Source: Actinomycetota bacterium
GTDB lineage: Bacteria; Actinomycetota; Aquicultoria; CAJVYJ01; JAUVQD01
Reading direction: 5' to 3'
Assembly: GCA_030679975.1 (NCBI GenBank)
Contig: JAUXSL010000027.1
Coordinates: 11,447-75,446, forward strand
Length of the DNA: 64,000 bases
Shown here piece by piece: positions 2,923-57,559 of this stretch. Position 1 is the first letter of the stretch, and each line of letters opens with the position of its first letter. The position numbers were made by a program, and so were the translations under genes. The notes beneath the pieces are model-generated. The model saw only the letters and a list, made by a program, of their open reading frames with translations. It had not been told where the DNA came from and did no database searches.

Positions 2923-4046
2923 GGCGCCAGCCTGTCAGCGTAAAAGTCAAGGAGTTTTTGCGATTCAATCGCCCAATTATACCGTGTGCGAATAGCGTTA
3001 AGGCCACGCTGCCCCATATTCAGTGCCTCTTGCGGATCTTCCAATAGGTCTCTGATGGCCCGAGATATGGCCTTAGGATCTAAGGAGTCAACCACCAAGC
3101 CACAGCCTGTTCCCATAACGATTTCTCGCCAGAGCGGGAAATTCGAGGCGATTACGGGAAGGCCGACGGACATATATTCAAAAAGCTTGTTTGGTTGTGA
3201 CTCGATGTGGTTTGCTTCAGGGTAAAATAGCACCAGCCCGATTCGACTTTGGCCTAAAAGATTCGCAACCTTCTCGCGGCTTTGATAACCGATAAAATCC
3301 ACTCGCTTGAAATCGGCTGATTTGCGCGTCTCAGTCTCTAGTCCGGGGGGGCAAAAATCGCCGGCCATTGCCAACCTGGCGTTTAGCGCCTCGGGCAGCA
3401 TGTCGATAGCCTGGATGATTTCGTTTACGCATCTAATAATGCTGATTCCACCAACATAAGTAATGAGGTGCGGTCGTTCTAAGTAAGGGCTTGATTTGGC
3501 GGGTTGAAGTTCGCCAAGGATAGGCATATTTTGCACGATCACAGTCTTTTTGTGGGGAAATCTTCGAGCAATTGCCGGGGTTGCGGCCACGACTCCGTCG
3601 AACGCCTTTACGCCCATGGTTTCCATAAGACCGACAGCCTTAGCGACCGGCCGCCTCAGCCAACGCGGTATCCAATATTTGCTCAGAATATCTTTTGGCA
3701 CGTCCTCATGGACATCATAAACGGTTTTAGCTCTTGAAATTATTCTTAGGAAAATAGTTGGAATAACTAGTTCGGGATCGTGAATGTGGTATATATCGGC
3801 ACGTTGGGCCAGAGCCAGCCTTATGGGCCGCCAGAGATTCCAAAATCGATCGATTCGACTCTTGGGTTCCGGGAGGGCTTTTATTTTGACGCCGCCGATG
3901 GTTTGATTTCGATCGTGGGGGGCGATTAAGGTCACGTCATAGCCGGATCGAGCCAATTCGGCGGCTTCTTTGTGAAAGATGCGAACGTCAAAAGCAGGGT
4001 GAACAGAGGTTATGTGAACTATTTTTGGCATAGCTGCGGCTAACAT
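2919..4046 (-). CDS. Family 4 glycosyltransferase
   Basis: GT-B fold, with a C-terminal EX7E-like region (GLPVIASNFPLWREIV). Overlaps neighbours by 4 nt in operon style. Confidence 0.8.
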   Translation of the reverse strand: MLAAAMPKIVHITSVHPAFDVRIFHKEAAELARSGYDVTLIAPHDRNQTIGGVKIKALPEPKSRIDRFWNLWRPIRLALAQRADIYHIHDPELVIPTIFLRIISRAKTVYDVHEDVPKDILSKYWIPRWLRRPVAKAVGLMETMGVKAFDGVVAATPAIARRFPHKKTVIVQNMPILGELQPAKSSPYLERPHLITYVGGISIIRCVNEIIQAIDMLPEALNARLAMAGDFCPPGLETETRKSADFKRVDFIGYQSREKVANLLGQSRIGLVLFYPEANHIESQPNKLFEYMSVGLPVIASNFPLWREIVMGTGCGLVVDSLDPKAISRAIRDLLEDPQEALNMGQRGLNAIRTRYNWAIESQKLLDFYADRLAP

Positions 4047-12765: not shown

Positions 12766-13920
12766 TCAGGTGATCTCCTCGATATGCCCGGACGGCGCAT
12801 TCACCAGCGGATGAACGCTTGATTCAACCGGCAGCCCGGCTTGATTAAAGATGTTCGCGAACCGATGCGCGTAAGTATGCTCATCTTGTGTTCTCTGGTA
12901 TCCGGCTTCAGCAATAGTCTGACGTTCATCGTCATGTCGTAAATAATATTGCGCCTTGGCGATCAGATCATCGGTACCGGTAAAGCATATGATTTCCTTG
13001 CCGGGCTCATAATAGTCGTCTAGATTGTCGGCCATACCGGTCAGAACGAAGCCTCCACAGCCGGGGATTTCAAAATTGCGGCCTTTGATCTGATCGTGGT
13101 AGTCGATCGTATCGGTGCTCGCGGGATTACCGTCGCTTGTGTCGCTTCTGAGTCGCAGGTTTTTCAGTGCTTTGATCCGGGCGCCGAAAGGCATTGCGTC
13201 TAAAGCCCGGGACAAAATCCTATAGCTTACGTTTTGGGCCGGCGGTGTCGGAGCAGGCACGGAAGCGTTTGATAGATTAAGGTTAACGCGGCTCTGATTG
13301 AATACCCGGATCATCTCTTCTTGAGACAACCGCCCGGTCTCCCAACCCGTACCCCAAACGTTTACTTTTAGACCGGCTTGACCCAACGCCTCGATCGTGC
13401 GGCGCCGATTTCCATGGGGCTGGCCGACGAATGTAATGTCATATAGCAGCGGCAGGTCAAGCCGGCGATAAGAAAAATGATTGCAGCCCCATTGGCTTTT
13501 TATTACGTTTTCATAACCAAGCTCCGCGTACTTGGGCAAAGCGCTTCTGGCTGTCGTGACTGCCCAATTAAAACATGGCGCCCAAATGTGTGAGAAGTTG
13601 TCGAAACGCCAATGGTCATCGCAAAACCAATTAAGAGTTATGGTATCGGTCTCTTCGGAAATCTTTCTGAGGATTTTCGGTTCGAATTCATCGGTGAAAA
13701 GCACGGTAAACATGAGATCAGGTTTTTCCGCCACGACCACATCCCAGAGGAGCCGGTTCATCTTACCGCGTCCGTATTGTTGTATTAATGTCATAAAATC
13801 AAAATAAAGAATATCGTGACCCATCTGAGCAAACGTGTCGTAAAAATTATGGTGCTCAAAGCCAAAACCCTGTTCCGGGCGCCCATAATCGTATTTCATG
13901 GCCGCGTACAAAAGTTTCAT
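12766..13920 (-). CDS. CgeB-like / GT1-type glycosyltransferase
   Basis: C-terminal GT-B region (GCGGFVLTGMADNLDDYYEPGKEI) resembles the CgeB and Glyco_trans_1_2 family. Confidence 0.6.
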   Translation of the reverse strand: MKLLYAAMKYDYGRPEQGFGFEHHNFYDTFAQMGHDILYFDFMTLIQQYGRGKMNRLLWDVVVAEKPDLMFTVLFTDEFEPKILRKISEETDTITLNWFCDDHWRFDNFSHIWAPCFNWAVTTARSALPKYAELGYENVIKSQWGCNHFSYRRLDLPLLYDITFVGQPHGNRRRTIEALGQAGLKVNVWGTGWETGRLSQEEMIRVFNQSRVNLNLSNASVPAPTPPAQNVSYRILSRALDAMPFGARIKALKNLRLRSDTSDGNPASTDTIDYHDQIKGRNFEIPGCGGFVLTGMADNLDDYYEPGKEIICFTGTDDLIAKAQYYLRHDDERQTIAEAGYQRTQDEHTYAHRFANIFNQAGLPVESSVHPLVNAPSGHIEEIT

Positions 13921-15161: not shown

Positions 15162-16124
15162 TTAGCCAAGAAGAGTCGGTTCTTTTATGTGATCCGTGTT
15201 CTTCTCAAACCAAGTTAGAGTGCGTTCAATGCCTTCATTAAGTTCGATTGTCGGTTGCCACCCGAGCACCTGCTTGGCCAGCGTAGGATCGAGTACGTTG
15301 CGTGGGATATCGACAGGTCTCGAGGGCGTATATTGGATCGCAAAATCTTTACCGGCAATCCCGCGCAATATCTGAATAATCGCGTTGACGCTGGTTCCAC
15401 GGCCGGTGCCGATGTTAAACAGACGATGAGGCGACGTGTCAAGCATTATTTTAATAAAGGCGTCGGTTGCATCTTCGACAAATAAATAATCCCTGACAAC
15501 TTTGCCGTCACCCCATACTTCAATCGGCAGGCCTTCGATTATTCGGCGGCAAAAAACGCCGATTATGCCCTGATTTTGCGAACCCCATTGCCGAGCCCCG
15601 TATGGGTTGGAAAGGCGGAGAATGCGGTAGTCGAGACCATATAGCTTATTGAACATGCCAAGATATTTCTCGATCGCCAGTTTATGTATTCCATACGAGC
15701 TTATCGGCTCTGTCCGATGACTCTCGGTAATTTTGTTTTGAGTCGTCGGGCCGTAAACAGTTCCACCCGAAGATGGAAAAATAATCCTCGAAACACCACA
15801 TTTAACGGCGATCTCCAGTAGATTAAGGGTCGGGATAAGATTTGTGCTTATGTCGAAAGCCGGGTTTGCAGTTGAATTATTCACTGTTGTCGTCGAGATC
15901 AAATGGAAAATGATATCCATTCCCTTAACTGCTGATTCGAGATCTTCCCGGCTGGTGAAGTCGCCGCTAATCACCTTTACCTTAGGCAGGGCGGCGGCGA
16001 TGTTCTTAGTTGTAGCCGCGGGGTGCTCAAAGACGCTGACGTTTTCATAGCTTTCCGCGAGTTTTAAGGTCAGATTGGCGCCGAGGAATCCACCACCGCC
16101 AAGCAAGAGTATCTTTTTTTTCAT
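15162..16124 (-). CDS. NAD-dependent nucleotide-sugar epimerase/dehydratase (SDR)
   Basis: GGGGFLGANL Rossmann motif near the N-terminus, and a YxxxK catalytic region. Start refined to the ATG at 16124 (MKKKILLLGG). Confidence 0.8.
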   Translation of the reverse strand: MKKKILLLGGGGFLGANLTLKLAESYENVSVFEHPAATTKNIAAALPKVKVISGDFTSREDLESAVKGMDIIFHLISTTTVNNSTANPAFDISTNLIPTLNLLEIAVKCGVSRIIFPSSGGTVYGPTTQNKITESHRTEPISSYGIHKLAIEKYLGMFNKLYGLDYRILRLSNPYGARQWGSQNQGIIGVFCRRIIEGLPIEVWGDGKVVRDYLFVEDATDAFIKIMLDTSPHRLFNIGTGRGTSVNAIIQILRGIAGKDFAIQYTPSRPVDIPRNVLDPTLAKQVLGWQPTIELNEGIERTLTWFEKNTDHIKEPTLLG

Positions 16125-18124
16125 GAGTCTGATTGAGGACGCAAGAGAAGTTTTTTTGAAATCTGCCATACGTGTCTTAATAGCCGCTCTCCGGTATGCT
16201 TGCCGATTTGCCAATATAGCCTGATGTTCATTAGTCTCTTTGGCTCAAGACTCATGGCCAGGGCCCACCGGACAAAAGACGAAGGCGCCGGTCCCGCCCA
16301 CATCTTGTTGAGGTACTTATCGGACAATCGTCTTTTTATTAATTGTTTGGTCTCGGGGGGATAATCGGCATAGGCGCCTTGGAACAATTTTCTTCCGGCC
16401 TTAAGCAGAACCGATATTCGCTTGAGCGCGGCGGTAATTGAGAGGTGCTCCGGTAAGTCCATGCCAAGCCAAGCGGACCGCAAAAAAGCGATATCGTCAT
16501 CGTCAAGAGGCAGATTGTCTCCCACGGAAAACCGGCAATTACGGGCGCTAATATCAAAAGCTTGACGGCGCTGTTCTTCAAGATTGCTCAAGGTCATACC
16601 TTCGGGATGCTCCACTCTTGTTACCAGTGGTGTTTCAAGATTTACCAACTTGGTGTACCCGGCCATTCTCGACCAAAGATCATAATCTTGAGTATAATCA
16701 TACGTCTTGCTCTGGTCGTAGGCGCCGTGCGCTTTAAGCAAAGAGCTTCTAAACATAACGGAAGAGTGAATCATAGGATTGTCGAAAAGCAAGAACCAGC
16801 GAATGTCCTCGTCGCTAAATGCGTAACTGGCAATTCTTTTTATTTCTCCATCAAGAGTAGCCAGCCAGCTTGTCGATCCCACTAGTCCCACATCCGCATG
16901 GTTATCAAGGTACGCTTTCTGTTGCGCCAACCGTCCGCGGTCGGCCACGTCATCTTGGTCCAAGCGACATATGTAAGCTCCTCTGGCGATATCAAGTCCC
17001 CTATTTAAGGTGCGGGCCAAGCCCATGTTTTCGTGAGCGATAGCCACTATTCTATTATCCGAATAATTGGAGATGATCTCTTCAGAGGCGTCCGTTGATC
17101 CGTCGTTTAAGATAATCAACTCAAAATCGGTGAACGTTTGCATAAGCAGGCTCTCGATGGCTCGGGTCAGAAGGTCGGCGCCGTTATATACGGGGAGTAG
17201 GATGGAAATATCCGGTTTAGCCGGCCCATTGGCGCCACCGGAATCACCTTCTTTGGCTAATAGAGAAGCGCTGTAATCGTTCATAATCAAATTCTTGTTC
17301 TTCTCGTCCGCGCGTAGGTAGTAACAGCGGATTTTATCCAGCATCATCATCTTACCGACATGTCTGGCCGGTGCGCCGAGCTTGTCCTTCATGTGAGCCA
17401 TTGTTTTAAAATAATAGACCATCTCGGCTCGATAGCCAAATTGAGATCCTAACAACTTTTTCGACAGATTTTCCTCTCCTTGCCGGTTGAAAGCGAGCAC
17501 CTTATCCAAATAATAGAAGTTGGTTGAGGCTAAAATCCTTGACCACATATCAATATCCGCGGCGCAACCGACCGCCGGGTCGAAATATCCGACCTTGTCA
17601 ATGTCTCTTCGACGAAACAGAATCGCCGTCGGCCAGCCAATGCGTCTTTTTTGCAGGAGATAGTTCTTAATAAGATCCTCACCGGACTCTTTTCTATCTC
17701 CAACGAATAGGCGATAGGGATTTTCATCTTGGCTTGTTAGCGTGTTGTTGTCGGCGTCGATGGCCAGATAGTTTGAGCAAGCAATTCCGACATCGTCGTA
17801 TTCATCTAAGACCTTTACCTGTTCCGCAAGGCAGTTTTTATCAAGAATGTCGTCATCGCCCATTATCTTAATATACTCACCTTGGGCTAAATCCAGTCCT
17901 TTATTCCAATTAAGAACAAATCCGATGTTTTTTTCATTACGCACAAACCTAATGTTGCCTCGATCACGATATTCAACCGCTAAGCGGCTTGTTTCATCTT
18001 GAGAGCAATCATCCAGGACTATGATCTCAAAGTCCCCAAAGGTCTGGGTCAACGCTGAATCGATAGCCATCTTTAGATAATGCGATCTATTAAAGGTTGG
18101 AATCAGTATTGAGCACTTAGCCAT
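16121..18124 (-). CDS. Tandem two-domain family 2 glycosyltransferase
   Basis: Two GT2 domains: CSILIPTFNRSHYLKMAIDSAL...VLDDCSQD and ISILLPVYNGADLLTRAIESLL...ILNDGSTD. 667 aa. Confidence 0.75.
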   Translation of the reverse strand: MAKCSILIPTFNRSHYLKMAIDSALTQTFGDFEIIVLDDCSQDETSRLAVEYRDRGNIRFVRNEKNIGFVLNWNKGLDLAQGEYIKIMGDDDILDKNCLAEQVKVLDEYDDVGIACSNYLAIDADNNTLTSQDENPYRLFVGDRKESGEDLIKNYLLQKRRIGWPTAILFRRRDIDKVGYFDPAVGCAADIDMWSRILASTNFYYLDKVLAFNRQGEENLSKKLLGSQFGYRAEMVYYFKTMAHMKDKLGAPARHVGKMMMLDKIRCYYLRADEKNKNLIMNDYSASLLAKEGDSGGANGPAKPDISILLPVYNGADLLTRAIESLLMQTFTDFELIILNDGSTDASEEIISNYSDNRIVAIAHENMGLARTLNRGLDIARGAYICRLDQDDVADRGRLAQQKAYLDNHADVGLVGSTSWLATLDGEIKRIASYAFSDEDIRWFLLFDNPMIHSSVMFRSSLLKAHGAYDQSKTYDYTQDYDLWSRMAGYTKLVNLETPLVTRVEHPEGMTLSNLEEQRRQAFDISARNCRFSVGDNLPLDDDDIAFLRSAWLGMDLPEHLSITAALKRISVLLKAGRKLFQGAYADYPPETKQLIKRRLSDKYLNKMWAGPAPSSFVRWALAMSLEPKRLMNIRLYWQIGKHTGERLLRHVWQISKKLLLRPQSDS

Positions 18125-19298
18125 TTTGATAAATAGGCGGCCGTGCGCCGGCAGCTATCTCCCCTAAAATGTTTTCCATATTTATCACAGCATTTTGCCA
18201 GCTAAATTTGCGTACACAATCGATCCCGTTTCGGGCGATATAGTCCCGTTTTTTGGGATTATCGATCAGCGTCAAAATCGCTTTTGCCAGTTCTTCCGGT
18301 TGACGGGGCGTCACCACTAAGGCTGTCTCTCCGTCTATCGCGTAGTCCTCAGTTCCATATTCGGTAACGACGACGGGTGTGCCGCAAGCCATGGCTTCAA
18401 GGGGGGGCAAAGGGAAACTCTCATACCATGATGAAAGAAAGACAATATCGGCTTCATTGTATAACTCAGTTAACTTTTCTTTGTAAACCTGGCCCACATA
18501 TTCAAAGGGAATGCCGGCGTCTTCGGTGGTTACCTCAGGGGCGCCGCCATAGACTTTCCAGACGATATTCTTATCCCTTGTTTGGTCAAAGACTATTTTC
18601 ATCGCCGCAACCGCATCCTTAAACCCTTTCCAGGCCACCCCGTTGCCCGAGAAGGAGGCAATCGTGAGGCGGTTGTCGTCTTTGGTATTGGCCAGCGGGT
18701 GGAAATGATCTAAGTTGACACCGTTGCAGCAGAGATAAGATTCCGCCTCGAATTTTTCCCAAATTATGTTTTTCAGCCAAGAAGAGTTGGCGATTTTAAC
18801 CAAGGGCAAATGATATGTATAGTCGGCGTCAAGCGCTTCAATCAAGGAATCGAAAGGGCGTGCGTCGGCGAATAATCGTTCATAATGTTGCATAAAATAG
18901 CAGCCCTTACCTTTTTTCGAAAGGTAGACCGGTATCGCGGTAGGGAAATCAGTGGCAATGTTTATATCGCAATCGGGCATGAGCAGGAGCAGGTTTTGTT
19001 CGGTATTTGTCCTGCGTTGAATATACTGCGCGTAAGTCTTCAGCTCTTCCGGCATCTCGTGCAGTTGCGAATATTGCCGATCGTCGGTTTTGGCTTGATC
19101 CGATTCGCTCGGCATAATTAACGCGGCTTCCAAATCAAACCAGGTCGGTTTGGTGTCGCGATAGGGAATGGTGATAGTTACCGTATGGCCTTTTCTTCTT
19201 AGTCCGTTTGCGTATTCAAAAATTGCTCTAATCCCGCCGGTGGCCGGTATGCCGGAAATGCAAAAATTAACTTTCAAATACCGCCTCCTTCTCACCAT
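18117..19298 (-). CDS. Family 4 glycosyltransferase
   Basis: ESFPLPPLEAMACGTPVVVTEYG motif. Confidence 0.8.
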   Translation of the reverse strand: MVRRRRYLKVNFCISGIPATGGIRAIFEYANGLRRKGHTVTITIPYRDTKPTWFDLEAALIMPSESDQAKTDDRQYSQLHEMPEELKTYAQYIQRRTNTEQNLLLLMPDCDINIATDFPTAIPVYLSKKGKGCYFMQHYERLFADARPFDSLIEALDADYTYHLPLVKIANSSWLKNIIWEKFEAESYLCCNGVNLDHFHPLANTKDDNRLTIASFSGNGVAWKGFKDAVAAMKIVFDQTRDKNIVWKVYGGAPEVTTEDAGIPFEYVGQVYKEKLTELYNEADIVFLSSWYESFPLPPLEAMACGTPVVVTEYGTEDYAIDGETALVVTPRQPEELAKAILTLIDNPKKRDYIARNGIDCVRKFSWQNAVINMENILGEIAAGARPPIYQNG

Positions 19299-28186: not shown

Positions 28187-29320
28187 CTATTTTACCGCTA
28201 TCGGCCGCTCTATGGCGACGGCCAGCGTCCTACATACATAGGTGACTTGCTTCTCACTCAATTGCGGGTACATCGGTAGGGATAAAACTTCTGTCGTTGC
28301 TAGTTCGCTTTGTGGATATGCTCCGGCGACCAGCCCTAAGTCAGCGTAGGCGGGTTGCAGATGGATGGGGAGCGGGTAATGAACGGCACTGTCGATGCCG
28401 CGATTCGCCAGTCTCTCCCTGATCGGGTCTCGCTCTTTGACGCGAATTGTATACTGGTGCCAGACATGTGTTCGGTTAGCGCCGGTTGCCGGTCGTTTGA
28501 CGCCCGGCAGTTCCGACAACAATGTATCATATAGGCCCGCACGCGAGCGCCGGGCCGCCGTCCAATTTTCGAGGCGCTTAAGTTTGGTTCTGACTACGGC
28601 GGCCTGCAGTTCGTCCAAGCGGCTGTTATATCCGATTTCTTCATGGTAATACTTCCGGCTGCTGCCGTGAGCTCTGAGCCGGCGGATTCGGCCGGCCGTT
28701 TCTTCGTCGTCGGTGACGATCATCCCACCGTCGCCGGCGCCGCCCAGATTTTTGCTGGGGAAGAAGCTTAGGCAGCCAATATTGCCGATCGATCCGACCC
28801 GTTTGTCCTTGTATTCGGCGCCGATAGCTTGGGCGCAATCTTCGACTACAGCGAGCTTGTATTTTCCGGCCAAGGTCATGATCTCAGCCATATCGGCCGG
28901 TTGTCCGTATAAGTGGACGGGCAAGATCGCGCGGGTGCGCGGGGTGATTTTAGCTTCGATCTGCCCGACATCCAAATTGTATGTCGCCGGATCGATATCG
29001 ACGAAGACAGGCACGGCGCCGCAATAAGATATAGCTTCGACGGTAGCGATAAAAGTAAACGGCGTAGTGATGACTTCGTCGCCGGGTCCAACACCTAAAG
29101 CACGCAAAGCCAGGTGCAGGGCGTCTGTTCCCGATGCGACCCCGACCGCGAAGCGGGCGCCGCAAAAGGCGGCGATCTCATCTTCCAGAGCGGCTACATT
29201 GGGGCCAAGGATAAACCTGCCGTCGGCCAGGGTTTGGTTAACGGCTGCCGTCAGTTCGTCTTTTATCTCTAAATACTGGGCCTTAAGATCAACGACGGGT
29301 ATCATCAATCGCTTAACCAC
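28187..29320 (-). CDS. DegT/DnrJ/EryC1-family PLP-dependent sugar aminotransferase (WbpE-like)
   Basis: N-terminal VDLKAQYLEIKDEL. A conserved lysine region (SFFPSKNLGGAGDGG). 377 aa. Confidence 0.85.
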   Translation of the reverse strand: MVKRLMIPVVDLKAQYLEIKDELTAAVNQTLADGRFILGPNVAALEDEIAAFCGARFAVGVASGTDALHLALRALGVGPGDEVITTPFTFIATVEAISYCGAVPVFVDIDPATYNLDVGQIEAKITPRTRAILPVHLYGQPADMAEIMTLAGKYKLAVVEDCAQAIGAEYKDKRVGSIGNIGCLSFFPSKNLGGAGDGGMIVTDDEETAGRIRRLRAHGSSRKYYHEEIGYNSRLDELQAAVVRTKLKRLENWTAARRSRAGLYDTLLSELPGVKRPATGANRTHVWHQYTIRVKERDPIRERLANRGIDSAVHYPLPIHLQPAYADLGLVAGAYPQSELATTEVLSLPMYPQLSEKQVTYVCRTLAVAIERPIAVK

Positions 29321-29797
29321 TCGTCCTGCGGCACATCGCGGATTATGCGGGCCGGGATACCCATGACCAGTTTGGCGTCCGGGACATCCTTAGTCACTAC
29401 CGAACCGGCAGCGACAAAAGCTTCGCGGCCGATAGTGATGCCCGGCAAAAGGAGCGAGGCGCCGCCGATGCGGGCGCCGCAAAAGGCGGCGATCTCATCT
29501 TCAAGAGCGGCTACATTGGGGCCAAGGATAAACCTTCCGTCGGCCAGAACTTGGTTAACGACTGCCGTCAGTTCGTCTTTTATTTCTAAATACTGGGCCT
29601 TAAGATCAACAACAGGTAGCATTAGCTGCTTAACCACTCGTCCTCCGGCACATCGCGGATTATACGGGCCGGGATACCCATGACCAGTTTGCCGTCGGGA
29701 ACATCCTTAGTTACTACCGAGCCGGCGGCGACAAAAGCTTCGCGACCGATAGTGATGCCCGGCAAAAGGAGCGAGGCGCCGCCGATGCGGGCGCCGC
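29153..29797. repeat. Tandem duplication of two 317-bp units, about 95% identical, bounded by 11-bp GCGGGCGCCGC microhomologies
   Basis: The GCGGGCGCCGC motif occurs at 29153-29163, 29470-29480 and 29787-29797. Each unit is the degT 5' end, the intergenic spacer, and the acetyltransferase 3' end. Confidence 0.85.
29305..29637 (-). pseudogene. Chimeric in-frame ORF created by the duplication: DegT N-terminus fused to acetyltransferase C-terminus
   Basis: Residues 1-56 are near-identical to the DegT N-terminus (MVKQLMLPVVDLKAQYLEIKDELTA...FCGAR). Residues 57-110 are near-identical to the acetyltransferase C-terminus (IGGASLLLPGITIGREAFVAAGSVV...). The junction is GAR, encoded by the microhomology. 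Confidence 0.5.
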
Positions 29798-51439: not shown

Positions 51440-52736
51440 GCCCCTCGCCGCGATAGTCGGCCGCCCTAATGTCGGCAAATCAACACTGGTAAACCGGCTG
51501 GGAGCCACGAGACAAGCGATTGTGGATATGACGGCGGGGGTGACCCGCGATCGCAACTATGTCGAGACCGATTGGCGCGGGCGCGAGTTTGTTTTAGTCG
51601 ATACCGGCGGTCTCGAGCCGGGCGGTCAAGAGCCGATGATACAGGCGATCAAAGCGCAGGCGTTGGCCGCTATCGAAGAGGCCGATATTATCTTGTTTGT
51701 TGTCGACGGCAAAAGCGGTCTGACGGCGGCGGATGAAGAGGTCGCCGAAATCTTGCGGAAGACCAGTAAGCCGCTGTTGCTGATCGTTAATAAGGTGGAC
51801 AACCCGGCCAACGAGGCGGCGATAATCCCTTTTTACGGGCTTGGTCTGGGCGATCCCGTGCCGGTATCGGCGTCCCATGGCTTGATGACCGGGGACTTGT
51901 TGGATATGGTCGTCGAACGATTACCGGAGACGCCCCCGGAGGATGCCGACACCGAGCAAGTGAAAATAGCGATCGTCGGGCGGCCTAACGCCGGCAAGTC
52001 GTCGGTCTTTAACCGCATCATCGGCGCCGAGAGGGCGGTCGTCTCCGAAATACCGGGCACCACCAGAGACGCCATCGATACCATGGTCGCGGTGGGGAAT
52101 AGCCAATATCGTTTTGTCGATACCGCCGGCCTGCGGCGGATCGCAAAACTCTCGGGCAACCTGGAATACTACGGCACGCTGAGAGCGATAAAAGCGCTTG
52201 AAGACGCGGCGGTCGCGATGTTGGTGGTCGATTGCTCGGTCGGCGTGACCGACCAAGACCAAAGAATAGCCGGGCTGGCGGAAGAGAAGCATTGCGCTCT
52301 TATCATCTTGCTGAACAAGTGGGACCTCGTCGACGAAGAAGAGGCCGAAGCCGTGGAATACGCCGTCGCGCATAAGCTTAATTTTGTCGAATACGCTATC
52401 GTCCTCAAGACATCGGCGCAAACCGGAGTGGGCATAAAGCGGGCCATCGCCGCCATCGATCAGGTCCATCAATCTTTCAACCGCCGGCTGGCCACGTCGG
52501 CCGTGAATAAGTTTCTGGTCGGCCTGCGAACGCAGCATGTTCCGACCAGGAAGGGCAAGGCGCTCAAGCTTAAATATATGACCCAACTGAAGGAAAGGCC
52601 GCCGACGTTCTTAATTTTTGTGAACGATCCGCAGATCGTTGACAATGCTTACAAGCGCTTTTTCGACAAGAAGTTTCGGGGCGCGTTCGACCTCACGGGC
52701 ACGCCGGTAAACTATTTTTTCCGGAAAGGCGATTGA
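51432..52736 (+). CDS. der: Ribosome-biogenesis GTPase Der (EngA), double GTPase plus KH-like domain
   Basis: Two G-domains (GRPNVGKSTL and GRPNAGKSSV). Start refined to the ATG at 51432 (MSKPLAAIVG). Confidence 0.9.
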   Translation: MSKPLAAIVGRPNVGKSTLVNRLGATRQAIVDMTAGVTRDRNYVETDWRGREFVLVDTGGLEPGGQEPMIQAIKAQALAAIEEADIILFVVDGKSGLTAADEEVAEILRKTSKPLLLIVNKVDNPANEAAIIPFYGLGLGDPVPVSASHGLMTGDLLDMVVERLPETPPEDADTEQVKIAIVGRPNAGKSSVFNRIIGAERAVVSEIPGTTRDAIDTMVAVGNSQYRFVDTAGLRRIAKLSGNLEYYGTLRAIKALEDAAVAMLVVDCSVGVTDQDQRIAGLAEEKHCALIILLNKWDLVDEEEAEAVEYAVAHKLNFVEYAIVLKTSAQTGVGIKRAIAAIDQVHQSFNRRLATSAVNKFLVGLRTQHVPTRKGKALKLKYMTQLKERPPTFLIFVNDPQIVDNAYKRFFDKKFRGAFDLTGTPVNYFFRKGD

Positions 52737-52737
52737 T

Positions 52738-53379
52738 TTGCCGGTTCTCATGTCAGCTCTGCTCGCTTATTTTATAGGGGCCGTACCGACAGGCTTATTG
52801 GTCGGCCGGATCGGTTGGCGCACCGATGTCAGGCTCCACGGCAGCGGCAATATCGGCGCCACAAACGTGGGCCGGGTCTTGGGACGCCGCGCGGGTTTTC
52901 TGGTCCTGGCGCTTGACGTTATGAAAGGGGCGGCGGCGGTAATGGCGCCGGTCGCGGTCTATAGCGGCGTTGTCCGGTTTCCGGTCGGCGGGACTCCCCG
53001 GGATTCCTTGCTTATAGTGGCCGCGGCGGCCGCGGTCATCGCGGGGAACATGTTTTCTATATTCATTGGCGGCAAAGGCGGCAAGGGTGTCGGCGTCGCC
53101 TCGGGGGCATTATTAGTGATGGTCCCGGAGATAGCGGTTATCTTGTTGCTGGTCTGGCTGACGGTCCGGACGGCCACTAAATACGTTTCGTTGGCGTCGC
53201 TAAGTATCGCCGCTCTTTTTCCGGCACTGATGTGGGTCTATCACGGCGCGAACAAAACGTATCTGGTATTTTCGTTGCTCTCCTCGGTCATGGTCTTTTA
53301 CAGCCATCGAGCCAATATCAAGCGCTTGATCGCCGGCGAGGAGCTAAAATATGATCAAAAGGCGGATAAACCGGTATGA
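52738..53379 (+). CDS. plsY: Glycerol-3-phosphate acyltransferase PlsY
   Basis: LGSGNIGATNVGRVLG motif and 5-6 transmembrane helices. The track start is TTG at 52738; the ATG at 52750 is an alternative. Confidence 0.85.
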   Translation: MPVLMSALLAYFIGAVPTGLLVGRIGWRTDVRLHGSGNIGATNVGRVLGRRAGFLVLALDVMKGAAAVMAPVAVYSGVVRFPVGGTPRDSLLIVAAAAAVIAGNMFSIFIGGKGGKGVGVASGALLVMVPEIAVILLLVWLTVRTATKYVSLASLSIAALFPALMWVYHGANKTYLVFSLLSSVMVFYSHRANIKRLIAGEELKYDQKADKPV

Positions 53380-54371
53380 GTAGCACAGGAGTCATCGGGG
53401 CCGGCAGCTGGGGCACAGCGATCTCTAATCTGCTTGCCAGGGCCGGTCATGAAGTGGTTTTGTGGGGGCGCGACCCGGTTTTGGTCGATGCTATTAATTC
53501 GACGCGCCATAATTCGCGTTACCTGAAAGAGGTCGAGCTGTCACCTAATCTTTTGGCCTCTTCGGACATCCTGGCCGCGGTAACCGGTAGAGAGGTGGTG
53601 GTCATGGCTGTTCCATCCCAGGCCATGCGGACCATCGCGACTTCGATCTCAGGTCACCTGGACAACCGGCAGATAATCGTCAGTCTTACCAAGGGGCTGG
53701 AAACCGGGACGCTGATGCGGATGAGCCAAGTCATCACAGAGGTGCTGCCGGGGCCGGCGGTGGCCGCGCTTTCAGGTCCGAACCACGCCGAAGAAGTCAG
53801 TCTGAATATCCCCTGCGCCACGGTGATCGCGGTTGAAAATCCGGCTATCGGGGCCAAGCTTCAAGAGCTGTTCATGACCCCGACCTTCCGGGTCTACACG
53901 AATAAAGACCTGCTTGGCGTTGAGATGGCGGCGGCGACCAAGAATGTCATCGCCATCGCCGTCGGTATTTCCGACGGACTCGGCTATGGCGACAACGCCA
54001 AGGCGGCCTTGATGACGCGCGGCTTAGCCGAGATGACGCGCCTGGGCGTGGCGATGGGCGCTAAAGCGATGACCTACGCCGGCCTGGCCGGCATCGGCGA
54101 TCTGATAGCTACCTGCACCAGCCGGCACAGCCGCAACCGGGCGGTAGGCGAGCGGTTGGCTAGAGGGCAGGCGGTCGGTGAAGCCCAGGCGGAGCTGGGG
54201 ATGGTGGCTGAAGGGGTAAGGACCGTCGAGGCCGTCTGCGCCTTAGCGCAAACCCATGATCTGGACATGCCGATTAGCCGCGCTGTTTATGATGTGATCT
54301 ACCTCGGCAAAGACCCCAAAAATTGCGTCGAGGAATTGATGACCCGGGGCCCGGCTGAAGAAGAGCTGTAA
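53376..54371 (+). CDS. gpsA: NAD(P)H-dependent glycerol-3-phosphate dehydrogenase
   Basis: GAGSWGTAIS N-terminus and LSGPNHAEEV motif. The start overlaps the plsY stop as ATGA. Confidence 0.9.
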   Translation: MSSTGVIGAGSWGTAISNLLARAGHEVVLWGRDPVLVDAINSTRHNSRYLKEVELSPNLLASSDILAAVTGREVVVMAVPSQAMRTIATSISGHLDNRQIIVSLTKGLETGTLMRMSQVITEVLPGPAVAALSGPNHAEEVSLNIPCATVIAVENPAIGAKLQELFMTPTFRVYTNKDLLGVEMAAATKNVIAIAVGISDGLGYGDNAKAALMTRGLAEMTRLGVAMGAKAMTYAGLAGIGDLIATCTSRHSRNRAVGERLARGQAVGEAQAELGMVAEGVRTVEAVCALAQTHDLDMPISRAVYDVIYLGKDPKNCVEELMTRGPAEEEL

Positions 54372-54494
54372 GTCGGGCTTGCCGCCGCTCCTGCGTTCGG
54401 CTCCGGCTCATGCGCCACCCCACAAGACAAAGTCCGTCTTGCGGGGACCCCGGGTGGCTCACGAGTCGCTAAGAAAAGCTTGCCCTCGGCATTC
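54372..54494. repeat. Partial copy of the right half of the MITE-like element, carrying a 40-bp insertion
   Basis: GTCGGGCTTGCCGCCGCTCCT.CGTTCGG.TCCGGCTCATG ... GCTAAGAAAAGCTTGCCCTCGGCATTC matches 55372-55450. It includes a hairpin CCCCACAAGAC/GTCTTGCGGGG. Confidence 0.55.
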
Positions 54495-54496
54495 TA

Positions 54497-54525
54497 TTGA
54501 CAACTCTACATCTCGGCAATAATAT
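54497..54525 (+). promoter_or_regulatory. Near-consensus sigma70-type promoter for the RelE/ParE module
   Basis: TTGACA (54497-54502), a 17-nt spacer, and TAATAT (54520-54525), about 25 nt upstream of the antitoxin start region. Confidence 0.4.
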
Positions 54526-54548
54526 TGGACATATAGACATACAGGCGT

Positions 54549-54803
54549 ATGGAGGTGTATGTGTCCAAGCGGATGACCGTGGTTTTTGACGACGATGAGT
54601 TGTATACGACGCTGAAGGTCGAGTCGGCGCGACAGCACCGGCCCGCAAAAGATATAGTGGCGGATGCCCTGCGCCAGTGGTTTGAGGCTAGAGAAGATGA
54701 AGCGCTGCGGCTGGAAATTAGAGAGGCGCGCGCGGAGTATAAGAAACACGGCGGCAAGGAAGCTCGTCGTTTCTTTGAGGACCTAAAAGCCGGCAAAGCA
54801 TAA
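54549..54803 (+). CDS. Type II antitoxin (ribbon-helix-helix-like), cognate to the downstream RelE/ParE toxin
   Basis: An 84-aa acidic protein (TVVFDDDELYTTLKVE...) ending 1 nt before the toxin ATG. The GTG at 54561, preceded by GGAGG, is a likely alternative start. Confidence 0.65.
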   Translation: MEVYVSKRMTVVFDDDELYTTLKVESARQHRPAKDIVADALRQWFEAREDEALRLEIREARAEYKKHGGKEARRFFEDLKAGKA

Positions 54804-54804
54804 G

Positions 54805-55074
54805 ATGGCTTATCGGATTGAACTGTCACCCGCGGCCCAGCGGGATATCAAGCGTTTCCCATCCCAGATTGTGCCCCTAGTCGAAGCAGCGGTCCTCTCT
54901 TTGGAAAACGATGCTTACCCGCCCGGCGTCCGGAAAGTGATCGGCGAGAAGTCAGTCTGGCGCGTGCGGGTGAGGTCTTACCGGATAATATACGAAATCT
55001 ACCAAGACGAGAGTTTAATAGTCATTCTTAAAGTAGACAAGCGAGGAGAAAGCACCTACAAGCGACCTAAATGA
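54805..55074 (+). CDS. RelE/ParE-family type II toxin (mRNA interferase)
   Basis: MAYRIELSPAAQRDIKRF...PPGVRKV.G...WRVRVRSYRIIYEI.DESLIVILKVDKRGE matches the RelE/ParE signature. Confidence 0.85.
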   Translation: MAYRIELSPAAQRDIKRFPSQIVPLVEAAVLSLENDAYPPGVRKVIGEKSVWRVRVRSYRIIYEIYQDESLIVILKVDKRGESTYKRPK

Positions 55075-55241
55075 CTTACGCTTAAGAGCCTGTTGCACAA
55101 ACGGCAATCTCATATGAACTTTAAAACGATTTTCAGCTTGATAATAATTTCGCGGGACTATTACGTTTATTCAACATATTAATAATTATTTACTATTATC
55201 ATCACTGAAACGACTCAACTCGAGTAAGCTCTATTTTCCTG

Positions 55242-55485
55242 CCCATTCAAGAGGAAGCATCCAAAACTCTGTGGTTTTGCCTCCTGGGCCGAGGGCAAGC
55301 TTTTCTTAGCTCCAGTTCGCGACTATGGCCTCCACCTCACTCCGGAGGGTGAAAGCCCTCCATAAAAGCGGGTCGGGCTTGCCGCCGCTCCTCCGTTCGG
55401 TTCCGGCTCATGTGGCTCACAGTCGCACTAAAAGCTTGCCCTCGGCATTCCACCACAGAGTTTTGGATGCTTCCCATTCAAGAGC
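55242..55485. mobile_element. MITE-like non-autonomous element, about 221 bp, with 22-bp terminal inverted repeats and 9-12 bp flanking direct repeats
   Basis: The inverted repeats are GGAAGCATCCAAAACTCTGTGG (55253-55274) and CCACAGAGTTTTGGATGCTTCC (55454-55475). The flanking direct repeats are CCCATTCAAGAG at 55242-55253 and 55474-55485. The interior has about 50-bp imperfect long inverted arms and no ORF. Confidence 0.5.
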
Positions 55486-55546
55486 ATAATTGTCTAAAAC
55501 GAGATAAAATATAGAAGAAAGATAAAAAACACTGTTAGCTTTAAAA

Positions 55547-56056
55547 ATGACTAATCAACAGACGAGCAGCAAAAAAGCATATTATCAAGATCATCAGTTC
55601 GTAATTCTGCAATGGGTTTTTGGAATTGCAATCTTTTTGCTATGGATAAAGCGAGCGGTCTTCGGTGTGCCTTGGCAAGTAAACCAGTTCAGTCTTTTTC
55701 ATCGGGTAATTGGAAATGACGCAGGTGAATTTATGGCATCAACGCTTCTCGCCTTCTTTTGCGTCGCTTTTGTTTTATGGGGTGTTAATAAAAATGCATG
55801 GCGTGAAGGCGCAAATCCAGAAACCGATCTTAATTTTTGGTTTAGATTCATGCAGGTCATGTTTGTTGTTGTAATATTTGCTGCGGGTGCGCAAGCCATC
55901 AGTGCGCTACGCTTTAACGAGCCTATTGTTGGCATGGCGTCTCTGTCCGTATTTAGGATTGCTATTGGAATATATGGATTCTTTCTCGCGCAACAACTCA
56001 TTAAGACGGTTCGAAATAATGGCGTCGACGAATTGATGATAAAAAGCCGAAGCTAA
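55547..56056 (+). CDS. Small four-transmembrane-helix membrane protein of unknown function
   Basis: 169 aa with four hydrophobic helices. GC is lower than the flanking DNA. No family recognised. Confidence 0.5.
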   Translation: MTNQQTSSKKAYYQDHQFVILQWVFGIAIFLLWIKRAVFGVPWQVNQFSLFHRVIGNDAGEFMASTLLAFFCVAFVLWGVNKNAWREGANPETDLNFWFRFMQVMFVVVIFAAGAQAISALRFNEPIVGMASLSVFRIAIGIYGFFLAQQLIKTVRNNGVDELMIKSRS

Positions 56057-56068
56057 CAAGGCGCTCCA

Positions 56069-56112
56069 GCGGATTTTTTAAACGGCCAAAATCATGCCGT
56101 TTAAAAAACCGC
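56069..56112. terminator. AT-rich 17-bp hairpin just after the membrane-protein stop; possible bidirectional terminator
   Basis: GCGGATTTTTTAAACGGC ... GCCGTTTAAAAAACCGC with a 9-nt loop and one bulge. Confidence 0.3.
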
Positions 56113-56122
56113 TGAGCTTGGG

Positions 56123-56289
56123 CGTTCCCCGGGCGCTGCGCGCCCGGGGAACGGACCCGCGAGCTGGAATCGGTCGCTGTTCTCCGGCCTCGCTGACTCG
56201 CGCCGGATAACAGCGATCTGGAGCCGATGTCGGCATAATAGCCGAAAAAGCCGGCATTATGCCGCCGCGGCTCAGCTCGCGGGTCCGTT
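56123..56289. ncRNA. About 170-nt block of nested perfect palindromes; candidate structured RNA or REP-like element
   Basis: A 14-bp stem at 56123-36/56140-53. A 17-bp long-range stem at 56150-66/56273-89, enclosing a 14-bp stem (56175-88/56202-15) and a 9-bp stem (56231-39/56256-64). Confidence 0.3.
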
Positions 56290-56329
56290 AGGCGTTAAAT
56301 TAAAGGGGATCAAAAGAATGTCAGAAAAA

Positions 56330-56358
56330 TTGCCATAATGCACACATTGTGCTATATT
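56330..56358 (+). promoter_or_regulatory. Candidate promoter with an overlapping palindromic operator upstream of brnT
   Basis: TTGCCA (56330-35), 17 nt, then TATATT (56353-58). The spacer contains the palindrome GCACA-CAT-TGTGC (56340-52). Confidence 0.3.
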
Positions 56359-56365
56359 TGATAAA

Positions 56366-56644
56366 GTGAAGCACATAAACTGGAACACGGAAAAAAGCCT
56401 AGGACTCAAGAAACTAAGAGGCGTCTGTTTTGAAGACGTTGTTTATTATGTCGAGAAGGGCGACCTGCTAGATGACTATGAACATCCGAATCAGGAAAGA
56501 TATATGGGACAAAGAATAATGGTTATCGGAATAAACAATTACGCATATCTTGTTCCTTATATTGAGAATGAAGATGAAATATTTTTAAAGACTATAATTC
56601 CAAGCAGGAAAGCGACAGAGATTTATCTTGGGGGAAGAAAATGA
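56366..56644 (+). CDS. brnT: BrnT-family ribonuclease toxin (DUF497)
   Basis: INWNTEKSLGLKKLRGVCFED...RIMVIGI...IIPSRKAT pattern. GTG start. The stop overlaps the brnA start as ATGA. Confidence 0.75.
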   Translation: MKHINWNTEKSLGLKKLRGVCFEDVVYYVEKGDLLDDYEHPNQERYMGQRIMVIGINNYAYLVPYIENEDEIFLKTIIPSRKATEIYLGGRK

Positions 56645-56919
56645 AAACCAAACTAACCAAAGAAGAACAAGAAATACTAGATAGTTTTGAAAGAGATGAG
56701 TGGGTTCCCGTGAAGAACCAAGCAAAAAGAAAAGCGGAGCTAATGACCTACGCAAGAAATACTCTGAAAAAAGACAAACGATTGAATATAAGGATTTCCG
56801 AAAGAGATCTGACTGAATTGCAAAGAAAAGCGGTGTCGGAAGGTCTGCCCTACCAGACATATGTCGCCAGCATTATTCATAAATTTGTAAACGGGAAACT
56901 CATTGACGTAAAAAGCTGA
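56641..56919 (+). CDS. brnA: BrnA antitoxin (CopG/RHH-like)
   Basis: EQEILDSFERDEWVPVKN...KRLNIRISERDLTELQRKAVSEGLPYQTYVASIIHKFVNG is the classic BrnA pattern. Confidence 0.8.
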   Translation: MKTKLTKEEQEILDSFERDEWVPVKNQAKRKAELMTYARNTLKKDKRLNIRISERDLTELQRKAVSEGLPYQTYVASIIHKFVNGKLIDVKS

Positions 56920-56947
56920 GTTGCTTGTGACGTTTGAGAGATAAAAA

Positions 56948-57214
56948 ATGAAATATACAGAATACTTCTTGTACACGAGAAATAAGCCCGGAAGAGCCGG
57001 AATAAAAGAGGCCTGGATTCAGTTCGCAATCGACAAACCGGTGCGTACTGAAATACAATCAGATGGCAGGATATGAAAATGGGCCAAGGTTGCCGAGCAA
57101 GAAAAGTATTTGCGAGTGGTTTTATTGCCCGACGGTGAGACAGTCCATAACGCCAAAAAGACCGCGCATTTTCCAGACCTCGCATATCAACAAATTGATA
57201 AAGAAACCGCATAA
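56948..57214 (+). pseudogene. DUF4258-like small protein gene interrupted by an in-frame TGA (or translated by opal read-through)
   Basis: ATG with GAGAG SD. 42 codons (MKYTEYFLYTRNKPGRAGIKEAWIQFAIDKPVRTEIQSDGRI), then TGA at 57074-57076, then 45 more in-frame codons (KWAKVAEQEKYLRVVLLPDGETVHNAKK...). The second half carries a YLRVVLL.DGET.HNA-type motif. Confidence 0.45.
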
Positions 57215-57271
57215 CATCCATTGAGAGCGACCGTGTCAAGGGCAAAAAATAGAGCTGCTCGGCCGGGTGAT

Positions 57272-57559
57272 TTATGCGACAGCCGACCCCGTCTTCTCCG
57301 TCTTGTTATCTGACTTAGTTTCCGGTTTAGTATCGGATTTAGTTTCCGATTTGGTCTCAGTCGGCACCGGGTTGGTCGATTTTTTCTTATTGTCGGTAGT
57401 GTAAAAACCTGAGCCTTTAAAGATTATTCCCACCGGGTGGAACATCCGCTTGACCGGTCCGCCGCATTTCGGGCACTTAGTCACCGGCTTATCTGTCATT
57501 TTTTGTACCACATCGAACTCGTTCGCGCATTTTTGGCATCTATATCCGTACGTCGGCAT
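57272..57559 (-). CDS. FmdB-family zinc-ribbon protein
   Basis: MPTYGYRCQKCANEFDV...CPKCGG N-terminal CxxC...CxxC ribbon, with a Thr/Lys/Glu-rich low-complexity tail. Confidence 0.8.
   Translation of the reverse strand: MPTYGYRCQKCANEFDVVQKMTDKPVTKCPKCGGPVKRMFHPVGIIFKGSGFYTTDNKKKSTNPVPTETKSETKSDTKPETKSDNKTEKTGSAVA

Follow-up and report, generated by a model that had tools for sequence, protein, structure and literature searches.

A decaying low-GC block between parE and fmdB of an Actinomycetota-labelled genome probably stems from an integron cassette array

The stretch of 64,000 nucleotides analysed here, referred to as the window (contig JAUXSL010000027.1 of assembly GCA_030679975.1), contains a block of low GC content between the toxin gene parE and the zinc-ribbon gene fmdB. 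We estimate a probability of about 0.8 that this block, at positions 55087–57282 of the forward strand, came from an integron cassette array, a piece of which became inserted between parE and fmdB in a single lineage and is now decaying. The interpretation is carried by an insertion polymorphism at the locus, the identity of an attC site, the boundaries of the cassettes, homologues of the cassettes in true arrays, decay events, and a later transposition of a miniature inverted-repeat transposable element (MITE). The original prediction had described positions 55075–57270 as an accessory islet with two toxin–antitoxin (TA) systems, a small membrane protein, and a disrupted gene. It missed the unifying architecture, a row of integron gene cassettes with attC sites. 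The cassettes are mobile units independent of one another and do not form one system.

Insertion of the block at the gpsA–fmdB junction

Metagenomic relatives of the locus were recovered via gpsA (L081, L082, and L083, with GpsA protein identities of 86, 73, and 64%) and via a ParE protein of the same 90% cluster (L169). In L081 and L082, the stop codon of gpsA abuts that of fmdB with a gap of 0–5 nt. The closest relative, L169, is 89% identical in DNA sequence to positions 52283–55086 of the window and has the gene order der-plsY-gpsA-MITE-parD-parE, followed directly by fmdB. The blastn alignment of the window with L169 extends up to position 55086 and resumes at 57283. The boundaries of the strain-specific insertion of 2,196 bp are thus 55087 and 57282, and not 55075 and 57270. 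The left core flank is gpsA (53376–54371, forward strand), with matches to the Pfam NAD_Gly3P_dh N- and C-terminal domains (E = 1e-53 and 3e-57), and the right one is fmdB (57272–57559, reverse strand; TIGR02605, 70 bits). The insertion replaces 48 bp of L169, which encode the last ~16 codons and the stop codon of fmdB. FmdB proteins of L081, L082, and L169 terminate with ...KPLEKA(A/S)T; in the window, the 3′ end of the gene was deleted and 11 nt of the insert are read instead, giving the C-terminus ...GSAVA. The islet is absent at the locus from all three of these relatives, which bears out the claim that it is accessory and horizontally acquired.

The composition of the block deviates clearly from that of its surroundings, as had been predicted. 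The GC content is 43.6% over positions 55075–57270 and reaches 37.7% in the brnTA genes, compared to 52.7% for the whole window (mean 0.527, standard deviation 0.050 in 500-nt segments). The left-flank genes der, plsY, and gpsA have 57–60% GC and the right-flank ABC-transporter genes 54–55%. The GC content at third codon positions (GC3) is 0.37–0.46 in the open reading frames (ORFs) of the block and 0.67–0.72 in the flanking genes. The codon adaptation index, trained on the window, is lowest in the membrane-protein ORF, with a value of 0.64 against a reference mean of 0.73 (standard deviation 0.03). Low GC content by itself is not unique to the block, since there are more low-GC stretches at 16121–19298 and elsewhere at ~4.6–22 kb of the window, which consist of large glycosyltransferase genes from a polysaccharide cluster and not of cassette arrays. 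The drop at 55075–57270 is still real, and the attC covariance model R1, described below, had no match in the glycosyltransferase stretches.

An attC site at the end of the membrane-protein gene

The first ORF of the block encodes a protein with four hydrophobic segments, referred to as the four-transmembrane (4-TM) protein. The 80-nt site E1 (56051–56130, forward strand) located at its end consists of the R″ box AGCTAAC, an L box, a hairpin, L′, and R′ GTT. R″ (56051–56057) contains the stop codon of the 4-TM ORF, and its triplet pairs with that of R′ (56124–56126) in the consensus fold. The L box contains bulged C56066 and A56073, and the attC site of aadA1 in plasmid R100 (attC_aadA1) has its bulges at these two model positions as well. 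A blastn comparison showed that the ~80 nt after the membrane-protein ORF recur after unrelated ORFs in contig L163 (three copies) and, in contig L161, in front of geneA, the first gene of a two-gene module discussed below. The five E1-type copies have a column identity of 78%, and their consensus fold ends in TAAC/GTTA and has unpaired spacers, a bulged inner stem, and a variable hairpin with compensatory changes. The covariance model R1, to which E1 scores 95 bits, was built from these five sequences, that is, E1 and the four metagenomic copies.

Model R1 recognizes attC sites of true integrons. In the Candidatus Kuenenia contig L166, it identified five sites with E-values of 1e-10 to 3e-7, all of them located immediately 3′ of cassette ORFs, and one weak match besides. 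The array of L166 starts beside a divergently oriented recombinase, which matches the integron integrase family TIGR02249 with 373.5 bits (cutoff 265). In L170, it found six sites that share one orientation and follow TA or uncharacterized cassettes, and in L164 a single site, positioned after brnA. The attC_aadA1 query is 100% identical to positions 13425–13534 of R100, located between aadA1 and qacEdelta1 downstream of intI1. This site is the sole significant match of R1 in the 5.1-kb In2 region of R100 (43.5 bits, E = 8e-11, full model length). In the control set of 1.57 Mb of unrelated gpsA neighbourhoods, R1 had no match at E ≤ 1. In the alignment of 18 sites, which was fitted to the model and hence favours structure, 90.7% of the cells were paired, compared to 28–38% with the partners slid, and 18 of the 22 pairs contained double (compensatory) changes.

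Published features of attC sites include R and L boxes, unpaired spacers, extrahelical bases, an AAC/GTT triplet, and a variable terminal structure of 20–100 nt (PMC4889954). E1 shares with the canonical attC sites, aadA1 in In2 of R100 and those of L166, the order R″-spacer-L″-hairpin-L′-spacer-R′, the AAC/GTT triplet, the two bulges, the length of 80 nt, and the position directly after an ORF. It differs in that its R′ reads GTTCCCC rather than GTTRRRY, owing to a GC-rich unit located 3′ of E1. We identify E1, from its sequence and predicted fold, as an attC site and hence as a putative substrate of integron integrases.

Positions 3032–3987 of the Candidatus Kuenenia contigs L165/L167 and 4908–6329 of L166 belong to the same integron with differing cassette content. 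In two Candidatus Kuenenia contigs, the integron integrase is split into two ORFs of 182 and 136 residues, probably by a frameshift. In L170, from the same metagenome as L169, an IS110-family transposase gene (380–1554) lies directly beside the first attC of the six-attC array; we take it to be reminiscent of the attC-targeting IS1111 group.

Cassette 1 encodes an orphan membrane protein

Cassette 1 (55535–56124, forward strand, 590 nt) is composed of the 4-TM ORF (55547–56056, 169 residues) and its own attC site. According to the boundary rule used here, the 5′ end of a cassette, G|TTxxxx, is the reverse complement of the R″ box of its own attC. The rule holds at seven of seven bases in four of the five cassettes of L170 and three of the four of L166 (seven of nine reference cassettes), and also in the HEPN cassette of L161 (5′ end GTTGGGC, R″ GCCCAAC). 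The 5′ end of cassette 1, GTTAGCT (55534–55540), is complementary to its R″ AGCTAAC at all seven bases. This complementarity and the stop codon inside R″ establish that the membrane-protein ORF is a self-contained cassette. We estimate the chance of a 169-codon open frame in DNA with 42% GC at ~3e-5 per start, which together with the attC site argues that the ORF is genuine.

The 4-TM protein has no homologue among ~15 billion proteins, and a word-index search of 5.8 billion clusters returned only the protein itself. A full HMMER search of 1.84 billion representatives returned nothing but itself and P0002; the latter was rejected as a homologue, since it is a translated 180-nt tandem repeat with an E-value inflated by repetition. 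There was no sequence match in Pfam, NCBIfam, PADLOC, PHROG, or the PDB. The AlphaFold2 (AF2) single-sequence model is all-helical (predicted local distance difference test score 67), and a Foldseek search of the PDB with this model returned only generic helical bundles (best E = 0.19). The promoter scan revealed no promoter of its own for the ORF. Our best guess is that the product is a small inner-membrane protein that, if expressed at all, depends on read-through from upstream.

A GC-rich unit, a brnTA cassette, and a dead third TA-like module

The attC site of cassette 1 is followed by a palindromic, ORF-less element of 163 nt with 62% GC (56125–56287, forward strand), recognized by its RNA fold (−154 kcal/mol, z = −10.4) and DNA fold. 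It is either a cassette without an ORF or a sequence that was inserted within the R′ core of E1. The ends of the unit, GTTCCCC (R′) and GGGGAAC (R″), are complementary, and R1 produced a weak atypical match at 56205–56289 (16.4 bits, E = 0.12). Excision of the unit would restore GGGC GTTAGGC. No second copy was found in the window or in the compared loci.

Cassette 3 (56288–56932, forward strand) starts at GTTAGGC (56287) and contains the predicted toxin gene brnT (56366–56644) and the predicted antitoxin gene brnA (56641–56919). The nucleotide identity of brnTA is 91.5% to L162, 81% to L170/L171, and 77% to L164. The promoter, TTGCCA-17-TATATT (56330–56358), has an extended −10 element, and the promoter region contains the conserved operator-like palindrome GCACACATTGTGC. 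The GTG start codon of brnT is located 7 nt after the −10 element, which suggests that the brnTA mRNA is leaderless. In L170 and L164, brnA is followed by a complete attC. In the window, only the 3′ part of the site is left, GCTGAGTT...GAC GTT (56915–56934), and the TGA of the L′ remnant now serves as the stop codon of brnA. The pair resembles type II TA systems of the BrnT/BrnA type (PF04365 / PF12441-PF14384) in having the toxin gene first, a 4-nt overlap, proteins of ~92 residues, and a palindromic operator in the promoter. NCBI names the proteins BrnT family toxin and antitoxin, and many homologues with 74–95% identity have a precomputed PF04365 match. The pair differs from the reference systems in its scores, which cover the full profile lengths and lie below the Pfam gathering cutoffs (BrnT 25.3 bits, cutoff 34.5; CopG_antitoxin 25.2 bits, cutoff 28), and in the lack of a match to solved structures: BrnT, BrnA, and the geneA profile had no significant match among PDB sequences. 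It is a candidate TA system. The BrnT/BrnA pair and the four-helix membrane protein of the original prediction are indeed present, as a BrnT-like/CopG-like pair and a 169-residue ORF with four hydrophobic segments.

Cassette 4 (56933–57251, forward strand) is decayed. Homologues of geneA and the DUF2283 gene form intact, adjacent, overlapping two-gene modules in L161, L163, and L165–L167, in which the first gene encodes 80 residues and the second a DUF2283 protein. Like brnTA, these modules are cassettes in attC arrays, and geneA starts 17–18 nt after the G/ATT core in every context. A protein alignment (A1) and blastn comparison with L163 and L161 showed that the window copy is a fusion of the two genes (56948–57216). 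It contains an in-frame TGA (57074–57076) in place of an arginine codon of the homologues, and a 177-nt deletion relative to L163 (its positions 225–401), with a junction at 4 nt of microhomology (57150–57153). The read-through translation follows a family of 78–83-residue proteins without Pfam domains as far as ...GETVHNA and then continues with the last ~19–21 residues of the DUF2283 protein, ...KKTAHFPDLAYQQIDKETA. Contig L172, a Logan assembly of run SRR13727519, is 100% identical over 56265–57251, and therefore the TGA and the deletion were reproduced by an independent assembly of reads of the same run. Cassette 4 is thus a dead third TA-like module. The disruption of a DUF4258-like gene by an internal stop codon had been recognized before, but the gene is also a deletion fusion of two genes and the DUF4258 label has little backing. 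Sub-threshold matches to DUF4258 (PF14076) were found in 11 of 28 members of the geneA family (best E = 0.0011), and the search with the window read-through found no DUF4258 match; the family is not caught by Pfam at threshold. Positions 57217–57251, after the DUF2283 stop codon, are a conserved flank that the window shares with L161 and L163. This flank was considered as an attC site but could not be so classified. In L163, a 64-residue ORF with two TM segments (575–768) is followed by the same flank.

The leader and the MITE copies

Cassette 1 is preceded by an AT-rich non-coding leader (55087–55534, forward strand; alignment A4 with L161), which is interrupted by a MITE. The last ~60 nt of the leader are 80% identical to the sequence before the HEPN cassette of L161, and the similarity ends exactly at the crossover G (ACTG|TT). 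An attI site would produce such a pattern, and we speculate that the leader may be attI-like; it is so called only because two different cassettes come after it. With the MITE left aside, this AT-rich sequence 3′ of parE was considered as a third type of attC and was rejected, as its fold has only −4.6 kcal/mol and it has no match to the covariance model.

The complete MITE in the leader (55254–55473, 220 nt) has terminal inverted repeats of 22–23 nt, GAAGCATCC..., and a DNA fold with z = −10.3. It is flanked by the 12-bp direct repeat CCCATTCAAGAG (55242–55253 and 55473–55484). A partial copy (54372–54495), with 41/41-nt and 21-23-nt matches to the full one, is located directly after the stop codon of gpsA. 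It has a 42-nt insertion (cgccaccccacaagacaaagtccgtcttgcggggaccccggg, 54413–54454) relative to the full copy and is without terminal repeats. L169 contains a more complete copy in the same place at the 3′ end of gpsA. The element is therefore short and non-coding, has terminal inverted repeats and a target-site duplication, and is present in several copies, as is characteristic of MITEs. No autonomous partner of the element was found. Its occurrence at the 3′ end of gpsA in both the window and L169 indicates that the family is native to the host lineage and that it transposed into the leader after the block had arrived. The MITE copies had been proposed to bound the islet on the left, but the partial copy lies to the left of parDE and the complete one inside the low-GC block.

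Integron status and alternative explanations

Clusters of attC sites without an integron integrase are known as CALIN, and integrase loss, rearrangement, and insertion at secondary sites have been proposed as their origins; for Actinomycetota, one In0 and only "a few CALIN" were reported, but not a single complete integron (Cury et al. 2016, PMC4889954; IntegronFinder 2.0 preprint, 10.1101/2022.02.28.482270). The block is an instance of this known phenomenon of integron cassettes outside an integron, be it a CALIN or isolated attC sites. It resembles CALIN in its attC cassettes of one orientation, the absence of a nearby integrase, cargo that is mostly uncharacterized or of the TA type, and the activity of insertion sequence (IS) elements and MITEs around it. 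It is unlike a typical CALIN in having a single fully intact attC, the others being truncated or atypical, an Actinomycetota-labelled host, and a possible attI-like leader. Richard et al. (2024, PMC13108822) describe TA pairs in sedentary chromosomal integrons as cassettes with their own promoters among promoter-less cassettes, presumed to stabilize the arrays. The block differs from these in that it is a four-unit remnant outside any integron and one of its TA pairs is already inactivated.

Several points weigh against the capture of an array fragment. The attC sites amount to one intact (95 bits), one weak and atypical (E = 0.12), one 3′-half remnant, and one truncated, unclassified flank, so that the strict definition of a CALIN (at least two attC sites, within 4 kb) does not clearly apply. 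At the left junction the sequence is CTTAAG, although the G should be retained in a clean G|TT crossover, and the right junction was destroyed by the deletion; integrase-mediated entry is thus hypothetical. The model R1 has a small basis of five sequences, and the covariation was counted in an alignment fitted to it. The search for an integrase covered the 64-kb window, which is part of a contig longer by 13 kb and of a larger metagenome-assembled genome. An attI site inside the insert would argue against simple insertion of cassettes. The gpsA scan of species-representative genomes yielded no close relative, the best hits having ~52–53% identity and coming from mixed phyla, and the phylum label Actinomycetota is that of NCBI, taken as given.

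It is improbable that this deep-branching lineage has, or recently had, its own working integron, the leader being a true attI, the block the part of the integron nearest to the integrase, and intI lost or located elsewhere in the genome. The cassettes shared with Planctomycetota-type and other arrays would then have been gained by an integrase in the host, and a working integron platform would be documented for the first time in a phylum from which complete integrons are reportedly absent. A tblastn search of the 64-kb window with the IntI of L166 found no integron integrase (best E = 0.28), and no intI with attI and promoter is present there.

An equally doubtful alternative is that the block is a generic horizontally acquired islet, such as a remnant of a plasmid, phage, or transposon, with hairpins that are ordinary terminators and no link to integrons. 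The lack of an integrase, a tRNA, and clean G|TT junctions would fit a generic islet, as would the MITEs and the IS elements beside related arrays; a search of the 64-kb window found no tRNA, and an Rfam search of 53–59 kb found nothing relevant. Ordinary terminators, however, do not account for the detection of attC_aadA1 and the attC sites of true integrons by R1 with nothing in the controls, the 7/7 complementarity of R′ and R″, the stop codon inside R″, or the presence of the same cassettes in arrays of six attC sites.

The original prediction offered a third explanation, a defence or addiction islet whose 4-TM protein acts as an abortive-infection (Abi) effector with the neighbouring TA modules. 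The islet is indeed rich in TA modules, small membrane proteins are common among Abi effectors, and phage-defence genes have been reported from integron cassettes. We nevertheless consider this explanation highly unlikely. The 4-TM protein has no PADLOC, PHROG, Pfam, or NCBIfam match, and being without any homologue it has no conserved association with TA systems. Its ORF has its own attC and cassette boundaries and is separated from brnTA by the attC and the structured GC-rich unit, while ParDE belongs to an older layer. Because the ORF is an independent cassette, its position between TA modules says nothing about its function.

The least credible explanation is an assembly chimera, in which the host contig took up reads from a cassette array of another organism. 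A single metagenome is indeed the source of L169, the relative of the host, and of the donor-like arrays L163 and L170, and the Logan contigs assembled from the source run are interrupted at 56265, at 57251, and in the MITE. A chimera, however, would need two independent mis-joins to separate sequences that adjoin each other in L169, and neither junction has a shared repeat. The block also contains a host-lineage MITE with a 12-bp target duplication, and fmdB carries the matching 48-bp deletion.

Order of events and proposed mechanism

The ParDE pair (54549–55074, forward strand) is composed of a ParD-like ribbon-helix-helix antitoxin (54549–54803) and a ParE toxin (54805–55074; PF05016, 47.1 bits, cutoff 23). 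The PHROG matches are RelE-like (3.9e-13) and, weakly, an Arc-like repressor for the upstream protein (0.005). The promoter scan identified TTGACA-17-TAATAT at 54497–54525. The composition of parDE is host-like, with 53% GC and GC3 of ~0.6, and the pair is also present in L169, where it adjoins fmdB. Since it is not low in GC and is common to L169, it represents an older layer. The original prediction merged the two layers: the RelE/ParE pair that it placed in the islet exists, with a toxin that scores above the PF05016 cutoff, but it lies outside the low-GC block and is older. The possibility that parDE is an attC-bearing cassette was rejected, as there is no attC beside it in L169 or the window.

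Comparison of the loci gives the following order of events. A bare gpsA/fmdB junction acquired the MITE and parDE, as in L169, after which the low-GC block entered in the lineage of the window only, followed by transposition of the MITE and decay. The junction in L169 and L081 contains GTTAAGT, which we take to fit the GTTRRRY core-site pattern of integron recombination. The ends of parE or gpsA and of fmdB form a short inverted repeat around it, GCGACTTAA ... TTAAGTCG (L169 ~2805–2850, L081 4750–4790). Two successive insertions, of the parDE block and the cassette block, took place at this one point and make the junction a candidate hot spot.

Based on the structure of the block, a mechanism of its capture can be proposed. 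The array fragment is arranged in one orientation, with the leader followed by cassette 1 and its attC, the 163-nt GC-rich unit, brnTA with a truncated attC, and the decayed cassette 4, whose attC was presumably lost together with the 48 bp of fmdB. The fragment may have entered at or beside the core-like GTTAAGT site, by the action of an integrase in trans or by illegitimate recombination. It may have been retained because the predicted BrnT toxin, a ribonuclease of the RelE fold, and BrnA would make its loss costly. The 4-TM cassette, if expressed, would be transcribed by read-through from parDE or the MITE.

What had been an unexplained islet of TA and defence genes thus becomes a dated series of events at a single chromosomal junction. 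If the Actinomycetota label holds, the block adds to the few examples known, and the states before and after its arrival are unusually clear. Cassettes of environmental arrays that cross phyla also reach a genome labelled Actinomycetota, and integron elements are reported to be extremely rare in this phylum. Neighbourhood in cassette arrays carries no functional information, and annotation by association, for example as an Abi effector, is therefore unsafe. The orphan 4-TM cassette with its intact attC offers a clean substrate for testing recombination and function.

Elsewhere in the window, a 300-nt tandem duplication (29149–29765, copies 92% identical) spans the junction between the 3′ end of a hexapeptide-repeat acetyltransferase gene and the 5′ end of a DegT-type aminotransferase gene. 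The duplication creates a chimeric ORF of 110 residues at 29305–29637.

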